Shown: positions 2,875-19,162, counted from the stretch's first letter. The stretch: DNA of 64,000 nt from an uncultured Chloroflexia bacterium (GCA_963768655.1 CAVYIM010000008.1:1-64000); one strand, 5' to 3'. Notes: generated by a model from the letters alone, not told the origin. Translations and numbers: made by a program.

Positions 2875-2964
2875 CTAAGCGGCCAGTAGCACCTCGACCA
2901 GCTCGTCCACACCCTCAATCACGATGGTTGGTGGAGTGCGTCCGAATCCCTCCGGGCGCGCCAT
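2875..2964 (-). other. Cryptic recombinase-C-terminus-like frame MARPEGFGRTPPTIVIEGVDELVEVLLAA*, overlapping the att core
   Basis: Manual translation; conserved at protein level with 12737..12826 and 19073..19162. Confidence 0.65.
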
Positions 2965-2984
2965 TGACACCTCCGGGCGCGCCA
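2948..2984 (+). repeat. Two tandem att-like cores matching a tRNA-Arg 3' end (2948-2963 and 2970-2984)
   Basis: TCCGAATCCCTCCGGGCGCGCCA resembles T-loop + acceptor stem + CCA of tRNA-Arg (CGGGCGC-G-CCA); second core follows after 6 bp. Confidence 0.75.
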
Positions 2985-3283
2985 CTCTTTCGAGTAGGTC
3001 CCCGAACCCGAGCCTTCGCCGAGGCGCTATACGCCGCGTTTTCCTGAGTGGCTCGCCGGCGACGGCCGAAGTGTCAGATGCCCAGTCCGTCGGTCAGGAT
3101 TGTCAGATGCCCGCCCCGACCAAACTGACGACTTTCAGATGCCCATCGCCCGGCGCTGGTTCTATCGGCCTGGCGCTAGTTCTGTGAGATTCATCGCGCC
3201 AAGGGCGTCAACTACGGCCGCCAGGGAGCTTCTGAGGAGTAGATCTGAGTGTCGGTGTGTCCGCGCTGGCGTGCGATCCTTGG

Positions 3284-3313
3284 TTGACGACTATGTCGGA
3301 TCGGACATATACT
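3284..3313 (+). promoter_or_regulatory. Sigma70-type promoter with operator for the TA operon
   Basis: TTGACG(3284)-18 bp-TATACT(3308); inverted repeat TATGTC-N6-GACATA at 3292-3309; GTG start 7 nt after the -10. Confidence 0.6.
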
Positions 3314-3320
3314 GCCGACC

Positions 3321-3668
3321 GTGAGTGCGGACGACAAGCCGCTGGTCTGGCTTCATGGAGAGGTGAGAACCCCTCCGCTGTCTCAACAGGCACGCATCGA
3401 GATTGGCGTGCTGCTACGGCGGATACAGCAGGGCGAACCTCTCGGGATGCCTGTCTCACGGCCCATGCCCTTGATCGGGAAGCGGTGCCACGAACTACGA
3501 ATTGTGGACGAGGACTCCACTTGGCGGGTCGTCTATCAGATCGATGACGACGCGATCGTAATCGCGGATGTGTTCAAGAAGAAGACGCAGGCGACGCCCA
3601 AAGACGTGATCGAGGCCTGCCAACGGCGGCTCCGCCTGTACGACGAAATCGTCGGCGGAAGGGAGTGA
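3321..3668 (+). CDS. Type II toxin, RelE/ParE/HigB-like (Gp49/DUF891)
   Basis: LGMPVSRPMPLIGKRCHELRI...WRVVY...IVIADVFKKKTQATP signature; overlaps the downstream HTH gene. Confidence 0.85.
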   Translation: MSADDKPLVWLHGEVRTPPLSQQARIEIGVLLRRIQQGEPLGMPVSRPMPLIGKRCHELRIVDEDSTWRVVYQIDDDAIVIADVFKKKTQATPKDVIEACQRRLRLYDEIVGGRE

Positions 3669-3994
3669 ACGCAAAGATGGATCAGAACAAGAAGGATCGC
3701 CTCGAAGGAGCCGGCTGGCGCGTCGGGAACGCCGAGGACTTCCTCGAACTCACCCCGGAGGAGACGGCGTTCATGGAGCTCAAGCTTGCCCTGGCCCGTT
3801 TCCTACGCGACGTGCGCGTGCAGCAGGGGTGGACGCAGGCGCAGACGGCGAAGCGCCTTGGGTCGAGCCAATCGCGATTCGCCAAGATGGAGGCGGCGGA
3901 CGCCTCCGTCTCAGTCGATCTGCTCGTCAAGTCACTGCTGGGGCTCGGAGCGACCCGTGAGCAGGTTGGCCAGGTAATCGCTCGAGCCGCATAA
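3665..3994 (+). CDS. XRE-family HTH antitoxin (HigA-like)
   Basis: WTQAQTAKRLGSSQSRFAKMEA helix-turn-helix; GTGA coupling to the toxin stop. Confidence 0.85.
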   Translation: MNAKMDQNKKDRLEGAGWRVGNAEDFLELTPEETAFMELKLALARFLRDVRVQQGWTQAQTAKRLGSSQSRFAKMEAADASVSVDLLVKSLLGLGATREQVGQVIARAA

Positions 3995-4399
3995 CGCTGG
4001 GCCCTGGCCAGTACACGTCGGGGTGAGCCGATCCGCCTTGTCGACCTGAGCTTCCGACTGTCAATCTGAAGGCCCGGGTCGCTTGCTCTACTTTGTTTCT
4101 CGTTCCGCCTTGGCATCCAAACCTGGCGCGCAGCCAACGAACTTGCCGGCCGAGTCGTGATGCAGGACGGCGCCCGGCTCTTCTGACGTGACGGGCGCTC
4201 AGGCAGGGGCGAGCGCAGATCTCGACGAAGGCATCTTGCCGGGCGATCGCGGCTGGTCCACTGGCGAACCGCCGGCGGATGTCACGACGCACTGGCCGAG
4301 ACTGCGGTTGGATCGCGAACGATCCTGTGCCAGGATCTGTGCCCCGACCGGCTCGAGACAGCAACGCCGAAGCACGAGGACAGAAGAACGAGGCGACGA

Positions 4400-5176
4400 A
4401 TGGCTGACACAACTGCCCCGGCCACCAACAAGCCCATCTGGATCGACCTGGCCAGCTCCGATCCGGCCGCCTCGCGGGAGTTCTACGCGAAGCTCTTCGG
4501 CTGGCAGGTCGAAGTGAACCCTGATCCGCAGTACGGCGGTTACGCGCTGGCAAAGAACGGCGGCCGCGACGTGGCGGGCATCGGCCCCAAGATGATGCCC
4601 GACGCGCCGACAGCCTGGTCGATCTACATTGGCACGCCGGACGCCGCGGATCTGGCGGAGAAGGTGCGGGCGGCGGGCGGCAAGGTAGTCGCCCCGCCTA
4701 TGCAGGTCGGCGACCAGGGCCGCATGGCCGTCTTCCAGGACCCCTCGGGCGCGTTCATCGGGGCCTGGCAGCCAATGGCGATGAGGGGGTTCACGTCCGA
4801 CGCCTCGGGCGCGTTCGGGTGGGCGGAATTGAACGCCCGAGGGCTGGACAAGGCCCTGCCATTCTACAGCGCGGTCTTCAGCTGGGTCCCCAGGATGAGC
4901 CCGATGGGCGAGGGCCAGCCACCGTACACGGAGTTCCTGGTCGGCAGCGAGAGCATTGCGGGTGGCCTGGAGATGAACCCCATGGTCCCGGCCGAGGTGC
5001 CGAGCTACTGGATGGTGTACTTCTTCGTTGACGAGGTGGATGGTTCGTTCCGAAAGGCGATCGAGGCGGGTGCCCGAGAGATGCTGGCCCCGCAGGACTT
5101 CCCCGGTGGTCGTTTCGCGATCCTCGGTGACCCGCAGGGTGCGGCTTTCGGATTGCTCAAGACGACGCCGCGGTAG
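4400..5176 (+). CDS. VOC/glyoxalase family protein (two domains)
   Basis: WIDLASSD..FYAKLFGW, GRMAVFQDPSGA and GRFAILGDPQGA repeats. Confidence 0.9.
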   Translation: MADTTAPATNKPIWIDLASSDPAASREFYAKLFGWQVEVNPDPQYGGYALAKNGGRDVAGIGPKMMPDAPTAWSIYIGTPDAADLAEKVRAAGGKVVAPPMQVGDQGRMAVFQDPSGAFIGAWQPMAMRGFTSDASGAFGWAELNARGLDKALPFYSAVFSWVPRMSPMGEGQPPYTEFLVGSESIAGGLEMNPMVPAEVPSYWMVYFFVDEVDGSFRKAIEAGAREMLAPQDFPGGRFAILGDPQGAAFGLLKTTPR

Positions 5177-5385
5177 CCAGGCCCGTGCCGGGCGCGGGGG
5201 GCCTGCCAGCGATCGGGTACGCTCGTTACCGAGGTGGCGCCACGAGGCGCCGCGGGTACGACCATCGCCCTCATCCGACCCGCCCAGGTCGGTGCAACGC
5301 TGGCCCGGCACGGCCGCGATGCTTACGTTCCGCGACCCTAACAGCAAGCGTGCGATTGCCCGATATGGCATGAGGAGCGCGAACC

Positions 5386-5742
5386 ATGAAGCAATACCTT
5401 CTTAGTGTGGTCACGCCCACCGGCGGGACGCCCCCACTTCCGGAAGTGCTCGGCCCGATCATGGAGCGAGTCGCAGCGATCGACAGGGATCTCAAGGACG
5501 CAGGCGCCTGGGTCTTCTCAGGGGGGCTCGAGGCGCCCAGCAGCGCAACCGCGCTGCGCCTGCAGGACGACGAGGTGCTAATGACGGACGGCCCGTTCGC
5601 TGAGGGCAAGGAGTACCTGGGCGGCTTCTCGATCATCAGGGTCGCCAACCTCGACGATGCGCTCGAGTGGGGCACCGGGCTAGCCCGCGCGATCGGCCTC
5701 CCGATCGAGGTGCGTCAGTTCGTCGACGACGAGCTTTCCTGA
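5386..5742 (+). CDS. YciI family (DGPF-motif) protein
   Basis: TDGPFAEGKEYLGGF motif; RBS GAGGAG. Confidence 0.9.
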   Translation: MKQYLLSVVTPTGGTPPLPEVLGPIMERVAAIDRDLKDAGAWVFSGGLEAPSSATALRLQDDEVLMTDGPFAEGKEYLGGFSIIRVANLDDALEWGTGLARAIGLPIEVRQFVDDELS

Positions 5743-5874
5743 CCGTTCAGCGCTCTCGCTCCGACCATTCAGGTAGGTGCTCCCCTTCCCACCTGCCCTT
5801 CCCGGCCGTCTACTCCAACTTTCGTCGTCACGCGTGCGGCGCACGCCGAGCGCCAGCTACCCCCGCTCAGCGCC

Positions 5875-5942
5875 CTACCCGGAGATCTTGCGGCGGTAGA
5901 TGACCATGGCGAAGACGTACGCGACGATGAGGATGCCGACAC
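5875..5942 (-). pseudogene. C-terminal remnant of an ABC-2 (DrrB-like) permease
   Basis: Translates VGILIVAYVFAMVIYRRKISG*, abutting the kinase stop codon. Confidence 0.4.
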
Positions 5943-8117
5943 TCAGGCACTCCGTCCGAATAGGGCGCCGACGACGTCGGCGAGGTCGAACGCGCTGAAG
6001 GGCTTCGCCAGCGGCCGCGGTGCGCCAGCCGGGAGCGAGCCCGCCTCATAGCCAGACATGAACAGGACCGGCAGTCCCGGTCGGATGGCGGCGATACGCT
6101 CCGCGAGCACCGGGCCGCTCATGACCGGCATGACGACGTCGGTGACGAGGGCGTCGAACGCACCCGGGTCCCCTGTTGCGGCATCGAGAGCAGCCATAGG
6201 ATCGCCGAACGAGAGCACGCGGTAGCCACACTCTTGCAGGGCGCGCTCCGCGAACAGGCGCACGGCGGGCTCGTCCTCGACGAGCAGGATCGTCTCGGTC
6301 CCGCCGCGCTGGCCGTGACCGACCTTGGGCACGCTCGGCGCCTCGACCGCAGCCTCTTTGAGTGCTGGCAGGTAGATGCGAAAGACGCTGCCGCCGCCGG
6401 GGTTGCTTTCGACGTCGATGTAACCACCGGCCTGCTTCACGATGCCATACACGCTGGCGAGGCCCAGGCCGGTGCCCTGGCCTCGGGGCTTGGTCGTAAA
6501 GAACGGCTCGAACAGATGCGCCTGCGTGTTCTCGTCCATCCCGACGCCGGTGTCGGACACCGATATGAGGACGTGGCGGCCGGCCTGCGCCCCTGGATGC
6601 GATCCGACGAAGATCCTGCTCAGCGTCACGGGCTTCACGGCGATGCCGAGCGTTCCGCCGGCAGGCATCGCATCGCGGGCGTTCGCGGCGAGGTTGAGCA
6701 GGACCTCCTCGATCTGGACCCGGTCGGCCAGAACGCGGGACACCTTTGGGCTCGCGTCGAGACTGACGAAGATGTCCTCCCCTACGAGGCGGCGCAGGAG
6801 CGCCACGGAGTCGCGGGCCAGGGCGGCCAGATCGAGAGGCGTGGGGTGCACCTCCGCTCGGCGGCTGAAGGCGAGCAGGCCGCGCGTCAACTGGGCGGCT
6901 CGTTCGGCCGCATGTTCGATCTCTAGGACGTCCGATCGGCTCTCGTCACCCGGCGGATGCTCGGCGAGATGGAGTTCGGCGAACCCGTGGATGGCCGTCA
7001 GCAGGTTGTTGAAGTCGTGGGCCACCCCGCCCGCGAGGCGCCCGACCGCCTCCATCTTCTGGGCCGCCGCCAGCTGCTCCGCGAGGGTGTGTGGCTCGGT
7101 TATGTCCTGGATTAGCCCGTCATATGAGAGAAGCGTGCCCTCGGGGCCGAATTGGGGCACGCATGTGTTGCGGACCCACCGGATCCGGCCGTCCTTGTGA
7201 ACGATCCGATGCTCCAGCGGGCCCACCTGTTCCCCCGCCACGATCCGGCGAGTCTGCTCACGGACCGCCTCGCGATCCTCCGGGACGATCACGCGCAGCC
7301 ACAGATGAGGGTCCTGCCACATCTCGTCGGATGAGTAGCCGGTCACCGCCACGCAGCCCGGGCCGTAGACGGTGGAGCTGGCCCGGCCGTCCTGTACGGT
7401 CACCGTGAATACGAAGTCCGTGATCGTCTCGGTGATGCGACGGTACCGCTCTTCACTGGCCTGAAGCTCAGAGGTGCGTTGGGCGACTCGACCTTCGAGC
7501 TCGTCGCGCGCAGCCCGGAGCTGCTCGCGCATGGCCGCATCCTCGATCGAGATGGCGGACTGGCTGGCCATGGCCGAGAGCATGTCGAGATCGGCCTGAT
7601 CGAACTCGCGATCCCCGGGCCGATTGGATGCCACGACGACGCCCAGGGCCCGGTCGCCGTACAGGATCGGGGCGACCATCATCGAACCCGGTCCGGTGGC
7701 CCGTCGTCGCTCGTCGACCCGAGGCGACTCTCGCGGGTCGCGAACGTTCCCCGTCGAGAGAGTGGCCTGGCGATGGTCGATCACCCAGCCCGCGAGCCCC
7801 TCCATCAGCTCGTCGAAGTCGATGTCGGTGAACCGATTGGCGGCCGGGCCGGCGCTGTAGTTGCCCGTCACCGAGCGCGTGTCTGTGTCGATGGCGAACA
7901 GATTGACTCGCATGGCCGGGAGCGCCTCGGCCACGACCTCCACGACGCGCTGCAGCAGCGTCTCGAGCGTCTCCCCCGCGACCTGCGAACTGCTGATTCG
8001 ATACAGGGCCTGGGCCTTGGCGAGAGCGGCTTCGATCTCGGCTCTCCCTAACGCCGGGTTGCCTGCCTGCCCGTGGCCTGGCGTGGCCGCAGCGCGATCA
8101 TCGCCACTTGTGTCCAT
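5943..8117 (-). CDS. Hybrid sensor histidine kinase (GAF-PAS-HisKA-HATPase-REC)
   Basis: AGGVAHDFNNLL H-box, FEPFFTTK, GTGLGL, ILLVEDE...TDVVMP; start placed at MDTSG. Confidence 0.9.
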   Translation of the reverse strand: MDTSGDDRAAATPGHGQAGNPALGRAEIEAALAKAQALYRISSSQVAGETLETLLQRVVEVVAEALPAMRVNLFAIDTDTRSVTGNYSAGPAANRFTDIDFDELMEGLAGWVIDHRQATLSTGNVRDPRESPRVDERRRATGPGSMMVAPILYGDRALGVVVASNRPGDREFDQADLDMLSAMASQSAISIEDAAMREQLRAARDELEGRVAQRTSELQASEERYRRITETITDFVFTVTVQDGRASSTVYGPGCVAVTGYSSDEMWQDPHLWLRVIVPEDREAVREQTRRIVAGEQVGPLEHRIVHKDGRIRWVRNTCVPQFGPEGTLLSYDGLIQDITEPHTLAEQLAAAQKMEAVGRLAGGVAHDFNNLLTAIHGFAELHLAEHPPGDESRSDVLEIEHAAERAAQLTRGLLAFSRRAEVHPTPLDLAALARDSVALLRRLVGEDIFVSLDASPKVSRVLADRVQIEEVLLNLAANARDAMPAGGTLGIAVKPVTLSRIFVGSHPGAQAGRHVLISVSDTGVGMDENTQAHLFEPFFTTKPRGQGTGLGLASVYGIVKQAGGYIDVESNPGGGSVFRIYLPALKEAAVEAPSVPKVGHGQRGGTETILLVEDEPAVRLFAERALQECGYRVLSFGDPMAALDAATGDPGAFDALVTDVVMPVMSGPVLAERIAAIRPGLPVLFMSGYEAGSLPAGAPRPLAKPFSAFDLADVVGALFGRSA

Positions 8118-8406
8118 AGCGAGGGTTCGGCACCTACCTGGTCGGAAGAGGTTGCGGCGGCGGAGTCCCCCTTCGCAGCTGTCGCAATGAGCTGCGAGGA
8201 GTCTAGCGCGACCCGTCGCCGCGGCCGGCGTCTTTCCGCACCGGCCCACGCTCGCATCTGGTCCGGTCGCGACTCCGCAGATACGGGAGCTAGATGGCAG
8301 GAAGGCCCGGTCGCCTTCCTCGAGGCCCCTCCGGGAAATCGGCGCACAGCCGAACTCCCTTGAGCGGAGGACGCTCCGGCGCTCGCCACCTACCCACGAA
8401 CAGGTC

Positions 8407-9671
8407 TCTATGCAGAGGGTCTGAGTGTCAAGGGCTTTCGCGCGGGGGGGTGCCCGTTTGAGCGAGGGGAATGCGCTTCTCATGTCTCTATTGCCTCCTC
8501 GGAGGGGAGGACTCGGTTGGGTGGGAGACAGCGGTGGCCCAAGTCATAGAGGGTCGTCAAGCGACCAGACCTGATGTGGGGCCTCCCGCTCGGAACGGCT
8601 CCTGGCGCGTGAGGATGTACCAGATCACGCCGGCGAGCTCGCGGGCGAGCTCTACCCGAGCGATCTTGCTGCCTCGCTGCTTGCCGAGCCGGCGCTTGGT
8701 GTGTTCGTAACGATCGTGATATCGAGGATCACGCGATGCGGTGGTGGCGGCTTCGATGAGCGCCCAGCGCAGGTACTTGGGTCCGGTCTTGGCGAGGGGT
8801 CCACGCCGATCGGATAGGCCGGACTGGTACACAGCGGGGCAGAGCCCGGTGTACCCGGTGAGCTGCTTGGGGCCCGCGAACCGGCCGATGTCGCCGATCT
8901 CGGCGGCGATCGTGTACGCGAGCACCCAGCCGATCCCTGGGACGGTCCGCAGCAGGGGCACGTACCGATGGTCGGCACCCGTGGCGCGGAGTTCAGCCTC
9001 GATCTCGTCGATCTTCGCCTCGAGATCGTCCACGAGGCGCAGGCTCGTTCGGAGCGTCGTCGCCCAGGGCTCTGGGATTGGCATGGAAGCGAGCAAGTCT
9101 CGCCCGCGCATCCCGAACAGGTCGGACACCGGCACCGACTGGCCAAACGCGATGAGCGTGGCGTGGATCCGGTTCTTGAGCGAGGTTCGATAGTGAACGA
9201 GGTACAGCCGGAAGCGGGCTCGCTCGCGTTCGGCGCGGATCGAGGGATCGGGCAGCCAGATCGCAGGCACCAACTCCCGTCGGGCCAGCTCGGCGAGTAC
9301 TCGCGCGTCGATCTTGTCAGTCTTGGCGGCCAGTGGGGCCAGGCCCCTCGCTTTCGCGGCGTCGGCGATCTCGACGTCCCAGCCCAAGCGCTCCAGGGTG
9401 TCGTGGACGAAGCGGGCACCGTTCATCGACTCGATCGCCGCCTCGACGGGCTGGCCGTAACGGGCAATCCGCGCCGTCAGCGTGCGGAGAGCGTCGGCAT
9501 CAGGATGCACGGCGAGGATCTCGACCGTCTGACCTGTCTCATCGAGGACGTGTACATCGAGCTTCTGGCGTGAAAGGTCCAACCCGGCGTATAACATCCC
9601 ATGGGCCTCCTGGTGATTGGTTCCGTTGAGAACCCACGATTTCACCAGCGGGGCCCTCTGAACCGTCTATG
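8407..9671 (-). mobile_element. IS110-family (IS1111-like) insertion sequence
   Basis: CATAGA core at both ends (8407-8412 and 9666-9671); subterminal inverted repeat CAGAGGGTC (8413) / GGCCCTCTG (9652-9660); about 145 bp of non-coding DNA after the transposase stop; outward-facing TTGACA near the end. Confidence 0.75.
8557..9597 (-). CDS. IS110 family transposase (DEDD RuvC-like)
   Basis: YAGLDLS, AIES, KTDKIDA, TVPGIG, EIGDIGRF and YTGLCP..YQSG motifs. Confidence 0.95.
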   Translation of the reverse strand: MLYAGLDLSRQKLDVHVLDETGQTVEILAVHPDADALRTLTARIARYGQPVEAAIESMNGARFVHDTLERLGWDVEIADAAKARGLAPLAAKTDKIDARVLAELARRELVPAIWLPDPSIRAERERARFRLYLVHYRTSLKNRIHATLIAFGQSVPVSDLFGMRGRDLLASMPIPEPWATTLRTSLRLVDDLEAKIDEIEAELRATGADHRYVPLLRTVPGIGWVLAYTIAAEIGDIGRFAGPKQLTGYTGLCPAVYQSGLSDRRGPLAKTGPKYLRWALIEAATTASRDPRYHDRYEHTKRRLGKQRGSKIARVELARELAGVIWYILTRQEPFRAGGPTSGLVA

Positions 9672-9997
9672 TCGCCGGCCTCGATGAGCTTGCCGGCACC
9701 CGCGGCGGCGCTGATGAGGGTGCGGTTGCGCGCGATCGAGTTCTCCAGCGCCAGGGTCTCGATGGCAGCGGTCTCCAGCAGGCGCTGTGCACCCTCGATG
9801 CTGCGCAGCCCGGCGAAGTCGTAGATGGTCGCGACGCTGCGGGCCTTGCGCCGGTGCATCCCGCCGATCCGTCTGGACTCGGCCGCTTCATCGGCCGAGT
9901 CGGGGTCGTGCCAGTAGCAGACGCTCTTGCCCCGCAAGGCCGGGGCCCGGCAGGCGAGGCCGTCGGGCATGAGGATGGTGCAGCCGCGGTTTACCAT
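9672..9997 (-). pseudogene. Small Cys/His-motif mobile-element protein interrupted by IS110
   Basis: C-x-DGLACRAPA-x-CYWH motif; the frame runs into the IS end at ...EAGDI. Confidence 0.55.
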
Positions 9998-10076
9998 CGT
10001 TTACCTCTGGTATACCGCGGGGTCACCATCTCGCCATAGTGTCGATCCCGGAGGGCTCCGCAGCGGGCTCGGCCGT

Positions 10077-10415
10077 TCATGGCTGGGCCGCCTTTTCGAG
10101 CTCCTCCTGGGCCGCGATCGCCTCGCGCAGGATGATCCGCAGGTTGGCCTTCTCGTGGTCGTCGAGCCCATCGAGCACGCCCGATGTCTGGGCCGCGTCT
10201 GCCGCGTGAGGCGACCCCGCCACCAGGGGCAAACGATGGGAACGCAGAAGCATCGCCGCGGGCTCGTACGAGGGCGTCCTGCGGGAGACGGCTTCGAGGG
10301 CCGCCACGTTCGCGAGCAGGGCCAGAGTCGGCTCATTGGCCAACTGCGGCCACGATCGCCGCGCACGACGGCCCGTGTCGGCCGACGGCGAAGCGTGTGT
10401 TGTTCGTCTAGCCAT
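10077..10415 (-). CDS. Hypothetical protein
   Basis: ATG overlaps the end of the methyltransferase; operon-like position. Confidence 0.45.
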   Translation of the reverse strand: MARRTTHASPSADTGRRARRSWPQLANEPTLALLANVAALEAVSRRTPSYEPAAMLLRSHRLPLVAGSPHAADAAQTSGVLDGLDDHEKANLRIILREAIAAQEELEKAAQP

Positions 10416-11641
10416 CGATGCGCTCCGCCGTCAGGCCGCTGAACCGCTCCCAGCGCCAAAGGACCACGTCGGCATAGATCGGGTCGATCTCGATCCCGGC
10501 ACAGATCCGGCCGGTCCGCTCGCAGGCGATGAGGGTCGAGCCTGAGCCCAGGAACGGATCGAGTACGAGATCGCCGGGCTCGGAGCTGTTGGCGATCGCC
10601 CGCTCCATCAACGCCAGGGGCTTCATGGTCGGGTGGAGCGGCGCATCGGCGGGTCTGGCTATCTCCCAGACGTCACCCTGATCGCGATCCCCGCACCAAT
10701 GATGGCTCGCTCCCTCTCGCCAGCCATACCAGATCGGCTCATATCCGCGTTGGTAGTCGGCGCGGCCGATGACGAAGCGGTCCTTGGCCCAGACGATGGT
10801 GTCGGACCAGTGGCCGCCCTCCTCGACGAGGACCCGCGAGACGAGCGGCATCTCCTTGCTCGACATGCAGCAGTAGATCGCACCCTCGACGCCGGCCAGC
10901 AACGTTCTCGCCCAGGCCCGCACGAAGGCTTCCCAGGCGATCGGGTCCATCGAGTCGTTGGCGATGCGGCGTCTTCGAGACCCCCGCTGGTGGCCGCCGT
11001 GGTCCCCGATGCTGACGTTGTATGGCGGGTCAGTGAAGACCATGCCGGCATGCTTGCCGGCCAGTGCCCGTTCGACGTCTTTCGGGCTTGGTGGCGTCGC
11101 CGGCCAGGAGGCGATGCTCACCTGGAGCCCACAGCTCTCCGGGCTTGGTCCGAGGTTCCCGGGTCGCCTCTTCGAGAGCGGAGTCGAGGTCGAAGTTCTC
11201 CGGGCGTTCGGCCTTCTCGCGGGTCTCCAGTCTGCGGAGTAGGTCGGCGATCTCGTCCTCTCCGAACCCCGAGAGGGAGAGATCGATGGTCGGGCTGGAT
11301 TGCAGGTCAGCCAGGAGCCTGGCCAGGAGCTGCTCGTCCCAGGAGCCGGAGATCCGATTGAGCGCCAGGTTCAGGAGGCGGGCCTGCTCGGCCGAGAGGT
11401 CCAGGTAGGTCACAGGGACGGTGGTCAGCCCCAGCCGGCGCGCGGCAACCAGACGCTGGTGACCCCCGATGACGGTGCCGTCCTCCTTCCGCGCCAGGAC
11501 CGGCTCGACGAAGCCGAACTGGCGGAGGCTGCGCGTGAGCGCTTCGAGCTCCTCCTCGCTGATCCGTCTCGGGTTCGCGGGATCGGCGCGGAGCTGGTCG
11601 ATCGGGACCTGCTCGACCGCCAGGAGCGTCGTGCCGGTCAT
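10408..11641 (-). pseudogene. ParB-N domain + N6/N4 DNA methyltransferase fusion, frameshifted
   Basis: NPRRI..FGFVEPV..IGGHQR (ParB); TDPPYN, HPTMKP and LDPFLGSGST (MTase); extra A near 11080-11082 in GDATKPE/DVER. Confidence 0.85.
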
Positions 11642-11739
11642 GCCGATCTGACCCTTGCTGCGGCCAGCCACTCATCGCGGCCTTCGATCGGAATGCGGCA
11701 GGCGGTTAACGCGGGTCCGTCACCCTCCGGGCGCGCCAC
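11638..11739 (-). other. Cryptic frame VARPEGDGPALTACRIPIEGRDEWLAAARVRSA*, with att core at 11723-11738
   Basis: Manual translation; its TGA overlaps the ParB-MTase ATG (ATGA). Confidence 0.6.
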
Positions 11740-11784
11740 TTACTCGGGTAGGTCAATGGCAACCCGTTGGCGTAGGTTGAGAAG

Positions 11785-12291
11785 TCAGGGGTCGAAGCGC
11801 CACCGCGTAGCGCCGCCCGGCTCAATAGTTAGCACGCCGAAGACCGTTGTCGGAGCGACAGCGTAGAGGTCCCATGGCGGAGGGCCGGCGCTCGGCGCAC
11901 TGAATTCGTATGTGAAGGCCCCATCTTTGACGGTGGCCGGCCAGCCCTGGTCCGCGTAGCGTTTCGCGAGTCGCTCGAGGGTGCTGTCGTCCGTCACTCG
12001 TTCAGCTATACCCTCGACGACGAGGTCGATGCCCGTCAGGGACATTGAGATCACGCAGTTGGCGTTCCCGGCGAGGTTCTGGCTCTTGCGAGTCCCGGCG
12101 CCACTCACGAAGTAGATCTTGCCGCTATCCCAGATTGCGCCAACCGCCGCGACATGTGGACGGCCGTCCGGGCGGGTCGTCGCAAGGAATGGTGTCTGGG
12201 TCTTGGGTTTGGCCGACTCGAGTGCCTCCAGCGCCCGCGACCACGGGATAGGATCGAGGCCGTAAAGATCGGCGAGGTTCTTCTGTTTCAT
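11785..12291 (-). CDS. Pyridoxamine 5'-phosphate oxidase-like (FMN/F420 split-barrel) protein
   Basis: FLATTRPDGRPHV...RKSQNL..N..C motif. Confidence 0.85.
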   Translation of the reverse strand: MKQKNLADLYGLDPIPWSRALEALESAKPKTQTPFLATTRPDGRPHVAAVGAIWDSGKIYFVSGAGTRKSQNLAGNANCVISMSLTGIDLVVEGIAERVTDDSTLERLAKRYADQGWPATVKDGAFTYEFSAPSAGPPPWDLYAVAPTTVFGVLTIEPGGATRWRFDP

Positions 12292-12497
12292 GTCGCTGCC
12301 CCCCAACGAGGTCCGTCGGATTGGGCCGCGACAGACGGTCCCAATATCCCCTTGAAGTGGTCCCGATCAGCATTGCCCATGCCGGGGTTGACGTAGTTTG
12401 GCGCAAGCAACTCGTCGACGAGATGGACCTTGCCGCCCTGCAAGACCTCGGTGATGAAGCGGCTGACAACGGCCTTGTTCTCTACCGATGACGCCAT
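12288..12497 (-). pseudogene. Truncated SnoaL/ester-cyclase family gene
   Basis: ENKAVVSRFITEVLQGG..VDELLAPNYV N-terminus; similarity lost after about 52 aa. Confidence 0.6.
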
Positions 12498-12736
12498 AGC
12501 GTCCTTTCTGGGTTGGTGACCCGCCCGGGGCGGTCGGTCTCGCTCTTGGCCCTGCGCGGCGGTCGAAGCGACCGTTATGGAGACGCCGCGCTGGTGGGAG
12601 ATATTGCTCCCTGCCTCCTCCCGGTCGGCGGAGTATGCACGGCTCGACCCAGGTCGAGTAACGAAGATCCACCTGCCGGGCGTTGGTGCCAGTGTGCCTG
12701 TTGGGTGCCATTATTCCGTGCGGGGATAGGGCAGAG

Positions 12737-12826
12737 CTACGCGGCCAGTAGCACCTCGACCAGTTCCTTAGTGCCCTCAATCACGATGGTTGGTGGAGTG
12801 CGTTCGGTTCCCTCCGGGCGCGCCAC
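12737..12826 (-). other. Cryptic frame VARPEGTERTPPTIVIEGTKELVEVLLAA*, with att core at 12810-12825
   Basis: Manual translation; homologous to 2875..2964. Confidence 0.65.
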
Positions 12827-12918
12827 TCATTCGGGTAGTGACTGAAAACCCAAAGGCATAGGCCCCGGGTGAGCGCATGCATGTGAGATTCGGCCGTCAG
12901 TAGCTGGAGAGTGCGCGG

Positions 12919-13679
12919 CTACCAAGGGTCCACGGAACCTCGAAGGTCGAAGCCGAGGCTGGTGTAGGCAGCGGTGCGCTTGGAATGCATTCGCGCCAGG
13001 ACCGGGATCCTGTAGTCCACGTAGTCATGTACCTCGACCCGCGTCTTGCCCTCGACCGGCCTGAGCACGCGGCCGACGTACTGGACGATTCGGCCCCGGA
13101 AGGCGATCGGAAACGCTACAAACAGCGTGTCCAGCGGCGGACAATCAAAGCCCTCGCCCAGGAGACTGCCGGTGGCCACGAGCAGCGCGCCATCTCCGGG
13201 CTGCGTCGCTGCGAGTCGATCGACGATCGCTCGTCGCTCTTTTCTGCCGATGCCTCCGACCAGGACGTCTGGGCGAACTCCCATTTCCTCAAGTCGATCG
13301 CGGATAAGGTCCACATGCTGCTTCCATTGAGAGAGGACGAGGCAGTTGCGGCCCGACTGCACGGCCGCAGCGATGTCGCCACAGACCTGGCGAGTCCTAG
13401 CGTCATCCTCTACCAGCGCGCGGAAGGCGGCCTGGATGGTGGGAGGCACCTCGCTTGTGCCGGTGACCGCACTTGTGTGGTTGGTTGGATGGACGACTAG
13501 AGTGCGCACCACGCCCGCCGTCGCGCCTGGATCCCAGCTCATCCGATGTCGCACCGGCCCGCAGTACATGGTTATCAGTCCCTCGAGCCCGTCTCGGCGG
13601 TACGGCGTGGCGGTCAGTCCCAACCAGACCGGCGCGCCGATCTCGCGGACCACGCGCTCGAAGGTAACGGCAGGGACGT
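12919..13679 (-). CDS. AEP-primase/SF2 helicase copy 2, exon 2 (helicase C-terminal half)
   Basis: HVPAVTF...LGLTATPYRRDG (motif III), GEGFDCPPLD, QYVGRVLR (motif VI). Confidence 0.9.
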
Positions 13680-15897
13680 GTAGGGTCGGCGGCAGGACGC
13701 CGTGCGGCCTTTCGGCCGTCGGTCTTCCCACCGCCGCCCTCCGAACCGGACGTGCACGTTCTCGCGCATCCGGCTCTCCACGAACACACGAAGCAAGCGT
13801 TGTCATGCGAGCGCCTCTGCCAGCCAGCCGAGGAACGCCGGGTCCCCGCTCGATGCGCGCCGATGGCGCCAGGGAGCTTGGTCGGCGGGAGCCTCGGCCC
13901 ACGGGTCCGGAATGAACTGGCCCCGGTGGCGGTAGCGCAGGATGCGCATCGTCGCCGGGTTGTACAGGATCAATCCGCCGGCCCTGATCCTGTCCTTGCC
14001 GTAGTAGCGCCGACGGACCTGCTTCCAGGTCAACCGCGGGTGCTTCTTGCGAAGCCAGCGGATCACCCGCCACCAGGCGTAGTAGCCCAGGTAGGCGAAC
14101 GTCCGTTTGGCCGCGGTCCAGCGGAAGTAGGCCGCCCAGCCCCGAAGAACGGGGTTGAGGTTGCGCAACAGCGAGGCGAGATCCAGGCTGGTCGTGGAAC
14201 GGCCGGTGAGAGTCTTCACCCGTCGTTTCACCGAGGCCAATGCCTCGTCCGACGGATGCGGGAAGACGGGGCGTCGATGGCCCTTGGGCTTGCGGACAAT
14301 CCGCACACCGAGGAACACGAAGCCCGCGTCGATGTGAGCCAGACCGGTCTTCTCGGGCTTCAGATGGAGCCCGATTGACTCAACGCGCTCAGAGAGCTGC
14401 CCAAGGAGCGCCTCCGCCTGCTCGCGTGTCCCCTTGACGAGGACGACGAGGTCGTCAGCGAACCGGACAAGCCGGTACGTCGGCTGACCCTTTCGACGCA
14501 GATACTGGCGCAAACCCCGATAGCGGCTCATCGCCGCCCAGTCCGCCGCGTAGCGGCGATCAAGGGCGGTGAGCGCGATGTTCGCCAGCAGGGGCGAGAT
14601 GATCCCGCCCTGTGGCGTGCCCGTGACGGTCCGCTCGAAGCGTCCGTTCTCTCGCATCACTCCGGCCCGAAGGAACGCCCGCACGAGCGCCAGGACGCGA
14701 CGGTCTCCGATCCGGCGGCTGACCTCGGCCATCAACTGGCCGTGGTCGATCCGGTCAAAGCACGCCTCGATGTCCGCCTCGATGACCCACTCGTAGGCCG
14801 AGGGATCTTGAGCGAAGTGGACAATCTCGGCGATCGCGTCATGTGCCCTTCGGGCGGGCCGATAGCCGTAGGACGAGGGATAGAAGTCGGCCTCGAAGAT
14901 CGGCTCCAACACGAGTTTCAGGGCCATCTGGACGACCCGGTCGCGGAGCGTCGGTATCCCGAGGTAGCGGAGCTTGCCGCCACGCTTGGGGATCGCCCGC
15001 TCTCTGACCGGGACCGGCCGGAAGCGTCCGGAACGCAACTCGCTACGCAGTTCGGCCAGGAACGGCTCAACGCCGTGCCTGTGCTCAATGTGGTAGCGAG
15101 TCGTGCCGTCGATCCCGGCTGTACGTGACCCCTTGTTCTGGCTCACCCGCGACCAGGCCACGGCGAGCGTGGCCGGATCGCAAACCAGGTTCCACAGATC
15201 GCAGAACCTGCGCTCGGCGTCATCCGACGCCCACTTGTGCAGCTTGCGTTCGATGTGGAGTACCCGCTCCCAGGCCTCTTCGAGACCCAGACTCGGTGCG
15301 TCGGCATTCACCGGCGACCTCCTCCCATCAAGCGAACCTGCGTATTCGCTGCCGCCCTTCCCCATGTGGCCGGCTTTCCCGGCCTCCGAGTACTGCGGCG
15401 GCTCCGCCACGCTCCGGCAGTAACAGCGGACGGTGCACCTGCCCTGAGCCCGATCGCTCGGACCCGACGGGCACCGCCGGAGCGCTTCCCACGTTGACCA
15501 CTCACCGGTTGGCAGGATCGGTGTCCAGCTTTACCCCTGTGGCATCGCCAGTTGGCACCGCAACAAGCCGACTGGCCTCGATCATCCAAGTCACCGCTGA
15601 ACGACCGAGACGGCCTCCACTCACCGCGGAGGTTCGAGCACCACAACAGCCCATAGCCGCCAGGTTCGGGGCTGGTGACGAGTCGAGGGGCTTCAACCAC
15701 TGGTTCGGTTTCCCTGCACCTGTCTGCCTTGCTTGCGGGCACGGCACGCTGGCGGCGGCCGTCCCTACGTTGTCGGGGCTGCTCCCGCCCTTCTCCCCAC
15801 CTCGGGAGTCGGGCTGCCCCCAGCTTCTTCCGGCCGTCGCGGCGACCGGAGGTGGGCCTTTCATCCCACCCGGTGAAAATGGCGCCTCGTGGCGCAC
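13680..15897 (-). mobile_element. Group II intron (2218 nt) inserted in helicase motif II
   Basis: 5' GTGCG at 15897; domain V GAGCCGGATGCG..CACGTCCGGTTC near 13743-13777; domain VI ending CCGACCCTAC at 13680. Removal restores GAC GAA TGC CAC C/AC GTC (DECHHV) in frame. Confidence 0.93.
13803..15311 (-). CDS. ltrA: Group II intron reverse transcriptase/maturase (no HNH domain seen)
   Basis: AGIDG, LGIPTLRDR, SYGYRP, DIEACFDRI, GTPQGGIISPLLANI, RFADD, LNPVLRGW; RBS GGAGGAGG before GTG at 15311. Confidence 0.93.
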   Translation of the reverse strand: MNADAPSLGLEEAWERVLHIERKLHKWASDDAERRFCDLWNLVCDPATLAVAWSRVSQNKGSRTAGIDGTTRYHIEHRHGVEPFLAELRSELRSGRFRPVPVRERAIPKRGGKLRYLGIPTLRDRVVQMALKLVLEPIFEADFYPSSYGYRPARRAHDAIAEIVHFAQDPSAYEWVIEADIEACFDRIDHGQLMAEVSRRIGDRRVLALVRAFLRAGVMRENGRFERTVTGTPQGGIISPLLANIALTALDRRYAADWAAMSRYRGLRQYLRRKGQPTYRLVRFADDLVVLVKGTREQAEALLGQLSERVESIGLHLKPEKTGLAHIDAGFVFLGVRIVRKPKGHRRPVFPHPSDEALASVKRRVKTLTGRSTTSLDLASLLRNLNPVLRGWAAYFRWTAAKRTFAYLGYYAWWRVIRWLRKKHPRLTWKQVRRRYYGKDRIRAGGLILYNPATMRILRYRHRGQFIPDPWAEAPADQAPWRHRRASSGDPAFLGWLAEALA

Positions 15898-17536
15898 GGT
15901 GGCATTCGTCGACGATCACGAACCCATATCCAGAGGTCAGTTCGCGGATGTCCTCCCGGCGCGCCAGCGACTGCACCATCGCGACATCGACGACGCCCCG
16001 CAGACGGCCAGCTCCGCCACCAAGCGTGCCGATCTGGCGGCGTTTGAGACCGAGATGCTCCTGCAGGCGCTCGCGCCACTGCTCGGCGAGGGGCTGGCGA
16101 TCGACGAGTACGAGCGTGCTGGTCTCCCGCTGGGCAATCAGGGCGCAGCCAACGACTGTCTTGCCTGTGCCCGGCGGTGCGACAAGAACGCCGAGCTCGT
16201 GACGGCGCAGCTCATCGAACGCGACTTGTTGGTCGGCGTCGAGCACAGCGCCGAGGCGAACCTCAATGGTCCGGGCGGCCCAGGCGGTCTCACGTACTTC
16301 CAGATGGCTGCCGGCCTCGACGGCAAGAGACACAGCAGCGTCACGCAGGCCCCGCGGCAGCAGGAGCTGGTCGATCGACTCTTCGTAGCAGCGGATCAGC
16401 CGCGGCGTGTTCCAGGTCGAGAGGCGCAGGCGCTCCTTCTCGTAGTACTCAGGGTTGTGGAGAGAGGCCAGATGCTTGAGAGCCGCGACGAGTGCAGGAG
16501 GTAGGCCGATGCGATCAATCGCGAGCATCGCACCGGCCACGGCCAGAATCTTGTCGGGCGGTTTCGGTCCGTCCCCGCGGAACGGGCGACGGTAGGTCGG
16601 TTCGACCGGGCCGGTTGCAACCTCGCGAAGCTGCTGCGCGAGACGGTTCACCCCGCTCACAGAGGTCCGTTGGAGACCCGAGAGGAAGGCGAACTGATCG
16701 TCGTGCGGCGTAAGGGAGTCGTCGAGGAACACGGTCGTGCCGCCTTTACGACAAGTGCCCTGAAGCGGAAGTGCAATCAGGTTGCCGAACGAGCCTTTCG
16801 GCATGAAGTCCTGCGCCGGGAACAAGCGGTCATAACTCGCGAGGTCGAGTTCGGCGCGGATGGTCATTGCTTCTCGGAGCAGATGGGCGCCGATCCTGCG
16901 TGCGGCGGATGCTGGAACTGCTCCCGCGAAAAGGATCCAAACATGGGCGCCGTCGCCCGAACGCGAGCGCTCGAGCGCGGCGTCGAACCCCAACGCCCGG
17001 GCGGCGTCCTGGTAGGCTCGCGCGTCCAGCGGCCAGGTCGACCCGTCGAAGTCGCACGCCAGCATGCGGCAACTGTCATTTGGCAGCAACGGATACAGAC
17101 CGACGTGAATGCGGCCAGACAGATGGGCCTCGATGACTTCGTCGCTGAGCGGGAGATATGTGCGGTCAGGCTTTCTTGCGTTGGCTGGCCCGCCCACAAC
17201 CGCAGGGCTCCAGCCCGACTTGCCCGTGCGAGAGTTGTCCCATCGAGTGGCGTAGACATCGTCACGCCCGTAGAACAGGGCTCTAAACACCCCGATCTTC
17301 GCCGCGGCCGACGACCTGGCATCGAGCTTTGGAAGGGGAGCGACATCACCATCGCCGAAAAGGGTCGTGCCGCCGGCAGCGAGCTCCGGAGTCCACCGCG
17401 GAGGCGGAGTATCGACGTTGTCGGCGCGCGTTCCGATCATCTCGCGAAGCCGCGCGTTCTCTGCCCGGAGAAGATCGGTCTCGCGCTCGAGGTCGTCCCG
17501 TGAGCGCACAGGAATGTGGCCTGAACGATCAGCCAC
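15898..17536 (-). CDS. AEP-primase/SF2 helicase copy 2, exon 1 (spliced product 799 aa)
   Basis: ACDFDG, ERSRSGDGAHVW and GNLIALPLQ (AEP); APPGTGKT Walker A; VIVDECH Walker B at the exon end. Confidence 0.9.
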
Positions 17537-17584
17537 TGGCTGCGTGGGTGCCGCTGGTGCCCGGGAACCCGGACCAACAAGCCC

Positions 17585-18856
17585 TCATGGGCAAAGGGAT
17601 CCGACCGGAATGACGTGCACCCCGTCGGGACGCGTGTAGGCGTAGCCGGTGGAAGTGATTACTCCCAGCGCGAGCGGCGGCCCGATCTTCGAGGTATCGA
17701 CGCGTTCGTCGGCCAGCTTGCGCAGGTGCTTAGCGGCTTCATCGACCTGGTTGAGGCCGATCGTGACCTCGAACGCGGCCCAGCGACCATCGGCAAGCTC
17801 GATGACCGCGTCTGCTTCCAGCTCGGTGTTGTCCCGGTAGTGGAAAACGGAGGCTTCGATCGCCTGGGCATATACGCGCAGGTCCCTGATGACCATGTTC
17901 TCGAAGTAGAACCCGAGTGTGTTGGGATCGCGCAGCAGAGCCTCATCGTTGATTGCGAGTGCGGCGACTGCAAGAGATGGATCGACGAAGTACCGAATTG
18001 GTGCTCCCCGCAACCGACTACGAGAACGTAGGTTCGGACTCCAGGCCGGCAGCTCGTCGATCACCATCAGGCGCGCGAGCGTGTCGAGGTAGCCTGAAAC
18101 GGTCTCCGGTTTTCTCGTGCCGTCGGAGCCGTTCACGTCCGCGGTGATTGTGTTTAGTGACGCCGCGGACCCGACGTGTCGGGCGTAGGACGAGAGGAGC
18201 TTCCGGACGAGCGCCGAATCGCGTTGGCGGCCACCGCTTGCTCGGTCCACGTCGGCCCGGGCAATCTCGCCCACATAGCCGCGCATCGCCCGCAGCGCAC
18301 GAAAGGTCGAGAGTTCCAGCAGCTGAGGCCAGCCGCCTCTGGAGACCAGGTCCGCGACATCGCGGATGGTGAGCCCCGAGTCGCCCGCACGGACGGGTGC
18401 CCCATCGAGGACTTCGGCGAACGAGACCGTTGCGGTCGATCGCCCGAGTTCATAGATCGTCATCGGACGCATCCTCAGCCGCAGGAACCGTCCGGCGCCT
18501 ACATGTCGCGTCTCGTCGTCAGGTGGTACGGCTGAGCCTGCCAGGATGAAAAGGCCGGTTACTCCGCGATCGTCGACGGCTCTGCGTACGGCATCCCAGA
18601 CATCCTTGACTCGCTGCCACTCGTCGATCAGGCGGGGATTGTCCCCCACAAGAGCCAGCGATGGGTCCAGCTCGGCTGCGGCACGGGCTTGGGCATCCAC
18701 ATCAAAGCGCACCTGGCTGCGTGCGATCTGGCTGGCTGTCATGGTTTTGCCGACCGACTTGGGCCCCTCGACGAGCACGGCGCCAACGCTTGCGAGCGCT
18801 TCGCGTAGCTCCGAGTCCACTACGCGCGGTCGATACTCGGGCATTCGCTCCTTCAC
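17585..18856 (-). CDS. AAA_14 + DUF4143 ATPase, copy 2 (intact frame)
   Basis: GPKSVGKT, LIDEWQ, GGWP, YFVDP and EADAVIE...AFEV motifs. Confidence 0.9.
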   Translation of the reverse strand: MKERMPEYRPRVVDSELREALASVGAVLVEGPKSVGKTMTASQIARSQVRFDVDAQARAAAELDPSLALVGDNPRLIDEWQRVKDVWDAVRRAVDDRGVTGLFILAGSAVPPDDETRHVGAGRFLRLRMRPMTIYELGRSTATVSFAEVLDGAPVRAGDSGLTIRDVADLVSRGGWPQLLELSTFRALRAMRGYVGEIARADVDRASGGRQRDSALVRKLLSSYARHVGSAASLNTITADVNGSDGTRKPETVSGYLDTLARLMVIDELPAWSPNLRSRSRLRGAPIRYFVDPSLAVAALAINDEALLRDPNTLGFYFENMVIRDLRVYAQAIEASVFHYRDNTELEADAVIELADGRWAAFEVTIGLNQVDEAAKHLRKLADERVDTSKIGPPLALGVITSTGYAYTRPDGVHVIPVGSLCP

Positions 18857-19072
18857 ACCCCGTTGCCGGGCCGCTCATGTCTTTGGCCCTCGGATTGTGA
18901 CCCGTAGCTCCGCTCAGGTCAAGCGGGCCAAGGGGTCCTTAGCAATGGCGTCGGGAGGTCGTTAGCAACGCCATCAGGCAGTCGTCTGCAATCTTCGCAA
19001 AGCAGTCTGCCGAACGGGTCGCGTCGCCGGGCCCGGTTGGGCGATGCCCTCGCGGCGAACTGCGCGGATGGG

Positions 19073-19162
19073 CTAAGCGGCCAGGAGAGCCTCGACCAGC
19101 TCGTCCAGCCCATCGATCACGAAGGTTGGTGGCGTGCGTTTGCATCCCTCCGGGCGCGCCAA
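19073..19162 (-). other. Cryptic frame LARPEGCKRTPPTFVIDGLDELVEALLAA*, with att core at 19146-19161 (rightmost array boundary)
   Basis: Manual translation; conservative substitutions relative to the other two LLAA copies. Confidence 0.65.

Follow-up and report, generated by a model that had tools for sequence, protein, structure and literature searches.

The window analysed here, a 64,000-nt stretch from an uncultured Chloroflexia bacterium (GCA_963768655.1, CAVYIM010000008.1:1-64000), is the start of contig C8 and carries four short minus-strand reading frames that begin with ARPEG at copies of a putative attachment (att) core. A preliminary description of this DNA had noted the four peptides, and they translate exactly as it gave them and at the coordinates it gave; it was also right that no tail has a coding body upstream in this genome, the core being preceded by a stop codon or by short non-recombinase sequence. 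Our analysis indicates that these tails are very probably detached 3' ends (28-32 codons plus a stop) of large serine recombinase (LSR) genes in which the attachment site attP lies inside the open reading frame (ORF). Three tails belong to one type, called LLAA here, and the fourth to a second, called the tail-4 type. The intact transfer RNA (tRNA) gene from which the cores derive their sequence, tRNA-Arg(TCG), lies on contig C9 (287272-287347). The tails and their cores in the window are as follows.

2875-2964, minus strand: tail 1, LLAA type; probable orphan end of an LSR gene (last 28 codons and stop), located at the right-hand end of island B
2948-2984, plus strand: doubled core, consisting of a tRNA-Arg(TCG) 3'-end block (2948-2963), 8 nt, and a second, partial copy (2972-2984)
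11638-11739, minus strand: tail 4, IPIEGRDEW...RSA type; probable orphan last 32 codons and stop of an LSR gene
11723-11738, plus strand: 16-nt block of identity with the tRNA-Arg 3' end, at the island C/D junction
12737-12826, minus strand: tail 2, LLAA type, at the right-hand end of island D (1.1 kb)
12810-12825, plus strand: 16-nt block of identity with the tRNA-Arg 3' end, at the island D/E junction
12826-12838, plus strand: conserved 13-nt right flank of the core, reading LPE-stop-V on the minus strand, with counterparts at 2985-2997 and 11739-11751
19073-19162, minus strand: tail 3, LLAA type, at the right-hand end of island E; last att copy, with chromosomal sequence beyond
19146-19161, plus strand: 16-nt block of identity with the tRNA-Arg 3' end, at the right boundary of the array

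The start of each peptide falls within 16 nt that match the tRNA-Arg(TCG) 3' end exactly, in blocks ending at 2963, 11738, 12825 and 19161, and an xTG codon (ATG, GTG, TTG and GTG) precedes each frame. Two other origins for the frames were considered and rejected. Translation of an independent mini-protein from the xTG on the core is countered by the source of that codon's first base, which comes from the adjoining flank (C, T, A or G), by the lack of an evident ribosome-binding site, and by the presence of the same sequence at the end of long recombinase ORFs elsewhere. Readthrough into tail 2 from the primase-helicase gene of islands B and E is countered by a stop at 12919-12921, out of frame and 93 nt upstream.

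Tail Sequences in Relatives and Their Parent Genes

The tail peptide was found in 27 of 201 related genomes, including 24 of the 50 congeners, and frequently as more than one copy in a genome. All of the relatives' matches are ungapped and all lie in short open frames of 28-116 aa, a pattern far beyond chance. In the DNA alignment at least five unrelated left flanks join the same conserved 87 nt, and similarity stops exactly at the stop codon, mean entropy being 1.71 bits in the 60 nt past the stop versus 0.37-0.78 bits by codon position within the tail. Among 24 distinct LLAA-type copies the stop is TAG in 18, TAA in four and TGA in one, with one copy reading through, and the absence of indels first noted among the three copies in the window holds in all 24. 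The earlier suggestion that selection acts on the peptide stands for codons 14-28, where pN/pS (the ratio of nonsynonymous to synonymous polymorphism, used descriptively) is 0.34 versus 1.23 and 1.87 in the shifted frames and entropy at codon positions 1, 2 and 3 is 0.45, 0.30 and 0.99. It fails for codons 6-13, which are DNA-like in having a pN/pS of 1.03 and entropies of 0.36, 0.50 and 0.39 that lack periodicity. We read this as probable protein-level constraint on codons 14-28 and DNA-level constraint on codons 6-13.

The conserved 90 nt might instead be a DNA or RNA element, such as attP-arm binding sites, a terminator or a small RNA, in which the frame is incidental. Codons 6-13 would suit such an element: they show no third-position excess, their CCA CCA ACC codons are invariant, and in the tail-4 type, whose attP is palindromic, they are the mirror image of the half-site on the LSR side. 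Past codon 13, though, the pattern is that of a protein, with a low pN/pS and variation concentrated at third positions, a stop whose position is conserved while its identity varies and at which similarity ends, no indels in 24 copies, and multiple predicted proteins that continue into the tail. For codons 14-28 the non-coding reading appears largely refuted by these patterns, and as an account of the whole tail it has next to no probability. Judged from their substitutions, the LLAA-type tails are coding sequence.

The parent gene was reached by a word search with a 41-aa stretch from the window, which led to P0007, a 190-aa recombinase C-terminal fragment in which LALPEVVIVARPEG continues directly into PTIVIEGVDELVKALLAA. 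An exhaustive HMMER search with P0007 yielded P0138, P0158, P0170, P0206 and P0215. These six and L040, a recombinase at a contig end among the relatives' loci that continues as ARPEGTEHTPPTIVI, are LSR C-terminal bodies with no stop before an LLAA-type tail, and tail 1 is homologous to the C-termini of P0007, P0158, P0170 and L040. While the LLAA type is known from fragments only, full-length LSRs are known for the tail-4 type. Residues 470-512 of one of them, the 512-aa P0036, match window positions 11763-11641 (tail 4) with 72% identity in tblastn. In locus L043 an intact LSR of 512 aa has tail-4 sequence as its C-terminus and a ParB-methylase gene after it; the same order occurs at window 10408-11739, where tail 4 is immediately upstream of island C's ParB-methylase gene. 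An alignment of the two tail types pairs IVIEGVDELV with IPIEGRDEWL, and LSRs at only 35-43% identity (P0133, P0141) still end in an IxIEG-helix element.

C-termini were classified in the best 120 of 547 homologues of one LSR. Antisense-tRNA codons end 89 of these proteins (66 of the tRNA-Arg(CCG) type, 14 of the tRNA-Arg(TCG) type and nine of a third type), and a tail-4-type sequence resembling ARPTGVGHALTTYRIPIEGRDEWLAAARVKSA plus a stop ends 17, of which 16 were assigned by script and one, P0098, was reassigned by eye from the class of other ends. Six more end in VSE[SF]TT and eight in other sequences.

The features of the family were assessed on tail-bearing relatives, the window itself having no recombinase body. 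The resolvase domain PF00239 scores 44.2 bits in P0036 and 41.4 bits in P0008 (cut-off, 23.3), and R21, E22, S23 and Q27 are invariant in 66 sequences; PF07508 (Recombinase) scores 16-19 bits, below its cut-off of 21.1. The AlphaFold model of P0036 has a mean predicted local distance difference test score (pLDDT) of 80.6, with the core-coded residues 482-488 below 50, and its tail forms a strand at 492-494 (pLDDT 85) and a helix at 500-511 (pLDDT 73). In Foldseek the model matches the SPbeta, PhiC31, Bxb1 and A118 integrases with E values of 5e-14 to 2e-7 over about 500 columns, in keeping with an architecture of Recombinase domain, zinc ribbon and C-terminal coiled coil. The model of P0007, of the LLAA type, shows the same strand and helix topology at low confidence (pLDDT 50-57). 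By these sequence comparisons, the tails are the 3' ends of LSR genes from a clade common in Chloroflexota (metagenome-assembled genomes of the Limnocylindrales type).

The att Site and the Two C-Termini

It had been predicted that a recombinase gene would read across the att site in the ARPEG frame, that a copy next to the tRNA would end in antisense-tRNA codons, and that a tail would be gained at recombined junctions. Relatives' proteins bear this out. Those LSRs that adjoin a tRNA gene end in ARPEGFEPPT followed by L, I, T, V or Y and a stop, and those at tRNA-Arg(TCG) in particular end in LALALPEVVMARPEGFEPPT followed by L, I or T. ARAGORN places tRNA-Arg(CCG) or tRNA-Arg(TCG) on the opposite strand beneath the 3' ends of the antisense-ending LSRs, the ends being ARPEGFEPPTL at tRNA-Arg(TCG) and ARPTGFEPATFGSGGRRSIR at tRNA-Arg(CCG). 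The same LSR bodies are found with either end, as expected if the tails are alternative C-termini. In the tandem loci L102, L107, L115, L097 and L116, the tRNA-proximal LSR ends in antisense tRNA and an internal LSR, or its remnant upstream of the next core, runs into a tail. As far as sequence can tell, these LSRs have two alternative C-termini that depend on DNA state, with attP within the ORF. On the structural models, integration would swap the enzyme's last strand and helix for 6-16 unrelated residues.

In the tail-4 type attP is a near-perfect palindrome, with 19-20 of 24 positions symmetric, and over all junctions of this type the figure is 15-20 of 24; the centre lies 13 nt beyond the core's first G in every case, or about 15 nt from the 3' end of the tRNA. 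On this geometry the recombinase-side half-site is predicted to be the 16-nt core, which also rebuilds the tRNA, and the other half-site to be tail codons 5-13; a binding role of this kind would explain why conservation there is at the DNA level. Only the last ~15 tail codons would then lie outside the 50-bp site.

We propose the following mechanism. The LSR-side half-site would encode GLALALPEVVM-ARPE, with the crossover predicted at about 15 nt from the tRNA 3' end; tail codons 5-13 would supply the far half-site, and the remaining ~15 codons the final beta-strand (IxIEG) and C-terminal helix. Integration at the 3' end of a tRNA-Arg gene would restore the tRNA, leave the LSR ending in antisense-tRNA codons, and leave the true tail behind at attR, the island's far end. 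A tail would be restored by excision or by the insertion of a second element next to the first. The genomic footprints consist of an intact tRNA at attL, tails at attR and tandem arrays.

At the locus itself, the expected arrangement of a plus-strand tRNA-Arg followed by a minus-strand recombinase to the left of the window is present on C9, and the expectation fails as to the gene, which is broken into three frames and is a distant relative only (27-31% identity to the LSR family). Its broken state may reflect decay or assembly error, which are indistinguishable here. Two more serine recombinase paralogues lie at G000:C3:516376-517764 and G000:C4:541425-542824; their main matches to the family are at 32-39% identity, they have a different C-terminal end (GARLVVMVGARGVGP), and a scan of a few hundred bases around the 3' end of each gave no tRNA.

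Several points weigh against the proposal that the tails are detached ends of attP-spanning LSR genes. No intact cognate LSR was found in this genome, and the best C-terminal frame of the tRNA-adjacent recombinase stops 2 nt before the core, in another frame. A targeted search among proteins of at least 334 aa returned no full-length LSR with an LLAA tail, which is weak evidence; the LLAA-tailed forms are fragments of 56-190 aa, and five genomes with intact ARPEGFEPPT-ending LSRs, when searched, gave no LLAA-type tail; at two cores in two of these genomes (L139; L140, also covered by L142) the ARPEG frame enters an intact tail-4-type tail. The sole LLAA-type attP, in L040, has 12 of 25 symmetric positions, and similarity between the core's right flank and the 3' ends of intact LSRs (LALALPEVVM) is weak, extending over about 9-12 nt. 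The tail copies come from kin genomes, and the selection statistics, being descriptive, overstate their independence. Finally, as neither an excised circle nor an empty attB was observed, any fused LSR-tail form seen could be a product of tandem arrays, and metagenome-assembled genomes can be mis-joined at repeats.

Two variations on the core were observed in the window. The doubled core at 2948-2984 reads VARPEVSMARPEG in the coding frame; it consists of the 16-nt block, then TTGACACC, then the 13-nt copy, and gives ARPEVSM-ARPEG. Its ARPE/T-VS junction is shared with the six of 120 database recombinases whose ends are of the ARP[ET]VSE[SF]TT form, and one end of this form lies 1.3 kb before the tRNA in L095. 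The doubled core may reflect crossover at an alternative position, or a small insert of a second kind. Upstream of the cores, the ARPEG frame reads LPE-stop-V-ARPEG at three junctions and LLERVARPEVSMARPEG at one. The 13-nt flanks at 2985-2997, 11739-11751 and 12826-12838 belong to three different recombinase-less islands and read LPE-stop-V or LLERV; in two of them a stop codon directly adjoins the core, and the motif recurs in the relatives L014, L019 and L035. This flank may be a short remnant of the half-site on the LSR side, or may imitate it; it could have been kept as a half-site that permits mobilisation in trans, or be a decayed recombinase 3' end.

The Island Array at tRNA-Arg(TCG)

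Across C9 and C8 there are six further copies of the core in direct orientation, with the intact tRNA-Arg(TCG) at one end, and a fifth tail, ending in LQAA, lies on C9 (G000:C9:294647-294733). Contig C9 ends and contig C8 begins within copies of one primase-helicase gene, which makes it very probable that the two are adjacent. The locus is a tandem genomic-island array at a tRNA gene, made up mostly of recombinase-less islands, and all of its tails lie on the minus strand at the right end of an island, immediately after the core. Repeated insertion at tRNA-Arg(TCG) would have produced this array of at least five islands. All five tails in this genome are orphans, as the recombinase genes of the array are missing or broken. 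The islands and their main contents are listed below.

Contig C9: island A, with a frameshifted serine recombinase, a pSAM2-type RepSA, a split C5 methylase and a TdeIII endonuclease
1-2874 (to 2963), minus strand: island B (part), with an AEP-TOTE primase and an AAA_14/DUF4143 ATPase, without recombinase
1-1248: AEP-TOTE primase of island B, running off the contig
1298-2062 and 2068-2748: AAA_14/DUF4143 ATPase of island B, in two frames
2985-11637 (to 11738): island C, with a histidine kinase, IS110 and a ParB-methylase, without recombinase
5943-8483: hybrid histidine kinase of island C
8557-9645: IS110 transposase of island C
10408-11671: ParB_N and N6/N4 methylase gene of island C, split by a frameshift
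To 12825: island D, 1.1 kb, with a PNPOx-like ORF
12839-19072 (to 19161), minus strand: island E, a 94% duplicate of island B, without recombinase
About 13680-15897: group II intron interrupting the primase-helicase of island E, with a reverse transcriptase/maturase at 13803-15410
17585-18856: AAA_14/DUF4143 ATPase of island E, intact

Positions 1-2963 and 16289-19161 form a duplication of about 3 kb (94.4% identity over 2708 nt), and since tails 1 and 3 stand at the ends of its two copies, they are not independent witnesses. Identity between islands B and E (2800-2963 versus 18998-19161) is 97% up to the tail stop codon and 86% inside the tail; tail 3 is nearest to the tail on C9 (90%) and tail 1 to tail 2 (87%). 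This mosaic pattern of identity suggests exchange at or within the tails.

The array had also been described as a library of alternative C-termini, in which islands without a recombinase keep their tails for an incoming or resident one. Consistent with such a role, internal LSRs read into the tail of a neighbouring island in L102, L115 and L097, the B/E mosaic suggests exchange of tails, and metagenome contigs show several tail variants joined to island E on its left (loose ends at 12773/12774). Yet the tail differences are conservative only, the genome yielded no intact recombinase to use them, and the graded LSR remnants of 30-95 residues upstream of relatives' tails look like decay, not design. 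Tandem accretion at tRNA genes is an ordinary result of repeated integration, and island accretion with decay fits the locus better, leaving the library claim unsupported and, in our estimate, improbable.

Twenty sequencing runs carry at most 0.26 of the words sampled, and contigs from four of them were placed along the window. Two joints in these contigs concern island E. An X2 contig joins 12695 to 19077 with a shorter side of 26 nt, and an X1 contig joins 19102 back to 12774 with seven letters between, at a depth of 2.1. Both would be compatible with loss of island E, a circle or a tandem copy; as they lie inside the repeated tail, with short sides and 90% likeness, nothing is drawn from them. 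One contig in each of two peat/permafrost runs (X1, X4) joins 13679 to 15898, omitting 2218 nt, which looks like an intron-less allele, the shorter side being 29 nt at 90% likeness.

Single frameshifts split several island genes, including the ParB-methylase (10408-11671), the island B ATPase (1298-2748), which is intact in island E, and the C5 methylase and serine recombinase (L001:11827-13244 and 7419-8840). These may be due either to island decay or to indel errors of long-read assembly. RepSA of the pSAM2 type is typical of actinomycete integrative conjugative elements. The RepSA replication initiator of island A (E 6e-99; L001:9244-10266, on G000:C9) is here found in a Chloroflexota genome, beside a serine and not a tyrosine recombinase. 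An explanation of the repeats as arm sites of a tyrosine integrase was rejected, no tyrosine integrase having been found in islands A-E. Elsewhere in the window, arrays of 117-nt (39-codon) repeats lie on opposite strands in large ORFs at 36564-38285 and 51600-53200; their WG..G motifs resemble the blades of RCC1/beta-propeller proteins, and they are unrelated to the tails.

Functional Readings and Known Systems

Any functional weight of the tail swap for the enzyme is a matter that we infer. By analogy with IntP/IntX of phage Mx8, the strand-helix tail may tune activity or directionality, a tentative reading to which we give a little less than an even chance; the purifying selection on codons 14-28 and the predicted strand and helix bear indirectly on a difference between the isoforms. 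A stronger version, in which the C-terminal strand and helix act as a built-in state sensor and the two isoforms differ in directionality, site preference or lifetime (through the Ala-Ala end), we consider unlikely. If it were true, only excised or tandem DNA would encode the complete enzyme, and DNA state would set integration versus excision with no separate directionality factor; islands that have a half-site and tail and lack a recombinase would be movable in trans and could re-arm an incoming recombinase.

The overlap of attP with the 3' end may, on the other hand, be a neutral by-product of compaction or history, the two isoforms working equally well and the tail only stabilising the fold of the free form. 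The antisense-ended form has otherwise intact ORFs of ~490-500 aa in the 89 homologues counted above, and since most members are antisense-ended with intact ORFs, the tail can be lost without harm to persistence, at the least; orphan tails also persist in this genome without any recombinase attached. Such neutrality sits poorly with the purifying selection on codons 14-28, with the retention of the IxIEG-helix even in the distant P0133 and P0141, and with the Mx8 precedent, in which a swapped C-terminus alters integrase behaviour (PMC6070905). We regard a neutral origin as possible, if rather unlikely.

The preliminary description favoured a ClpXP degron, by which the excised or tandem enzyme, ending in LLAA, would be quickly degraded and the integrated form would be stable, so that DNA state sets stability. 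The host transfer-messenger RNA (tmRNA), located with Rfam RF00023 (ARAGORN found none in the genome), encodes a tag ending in QPAFALAA, clpX is present (645 bits), and among the LLAA-type tails 20 of 24 end in Ala-Ala and 13 of 24 in LAA. In phage BPs a C-terminal degradation tag is present on both Rep and Int, and Rep loses its tag on integration (PMC3694055); in Mycobacterium abscessus prophages, AA-ending remnant tails lie at attR and at tandem junctions (PMC9934374). Against a degron, the other LLAA-type ends are diverse (RAA in six, LVA in two, QAA and RDA in one each, n = 24), and one copy has lost its stop and reads through. The tail-4 type, to which all the full-length proteins seen belong, ends in RSA, RLA, LTA, QRA or similar, with LAA in none of 17. 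Moreover, the motif common to both types, IxIEGxDE[LW], is internal and not terminal, and AlphaFold predicts a strand and terminal helix in both (at pLDDT 50-57 for the LLAA type), not a floppy tag. The degron idea is weakened by these observations and doubtful, for the tail-4 type in particular.

Large serine integrases are prized for strict control of direction, which is normally achieved through a separate directionality factor. If the proposal is true, an LSR that, through its own reaction, exchanges the last strand and helix of its own chain would amount to a self-recording recombinase, and would offer a simple route to state-dependent control of activity or stability. Such LSRs have two C-termini and overlap a tRNA gene in antisense, and gene callers and island finders are expected to mis-annotate them for that reason. 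The orphan tails, overlooked by the same tools, would mark attR ends in Chloroflexota precisely, and likewise the boundaries between tandem islands.

An attP in an integrase gene (Mx8) and an attP in a repressor gene with a removable tag (BPs) are already known; a search of the open-access literature found no serine recombinase with an ORF spanning attP. In Mx8, attP lies inside the integrase gene and integration makes a recombinant gene with a new 3' end and altered behaviour (PMC6070905), and the LSRs resemble Mx8 IntP/IntX in having attP within the integrase coding sequence and gaining a new 3' end on integration. Unlike the Mx8 integrase, which is a tyrosine recombinase, they have an LSR fold and their new end is antisense tRNA-Arg; and where Mx8 is one phage, the arrangement here is clade-wide, seen in the sequences of hundreds of metagenomic proteins.

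Phage BPs and the tandem M. abscessus prophages likewise have a gene that spans attP at a tRNA gene and loses an Ala-Ala-ending tail on integration (PMC3694055, PMC9934374), and share with this locus a 3' remnant at attR and attR/attL junctions between tandem prophages. In BPs, however, it is the repressor that spans attP, with a separate tyrosine integrase, whereas here the recombinase itself does so and the degron is putative. Islander- and TIGER-type arrays resemble this one in having an intact tRNA at one end and displaced 3'-end fragments as direct repeats between islands. Islands at tRNA genes normally rely on tyrosine integrases (PMC4383910). In this array, unlike those, the repeats are predicted half-sites of a serine recombinase and bear coding tails.

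The LSRs described here share with SPbeta SprA, PhiC31, Bxb1 and A118 the overall fold, a Resolvase domain with an invariant Ser and, to judge from the tail-4-type junctions, possibly a short attP with dyad symmetry. Characterised large serine integrases have their att site outside the gene, and a separate recombination directionality factor sets directionality. The present family differs from them in having attP inside the ORF, a tRNA-Arg 3' end as target, and a last strand and helix that would be exchanged on integration. Archaeal integrases of the SSV type, which are tyrosine recombinases, also have a gene that is partitioned by integration at a tRNA, well inside the coding body; in the Chloroflexota LSRs, by contrast, the last 17-27 residues would be swapped and the body of the enzyme would stay whole.

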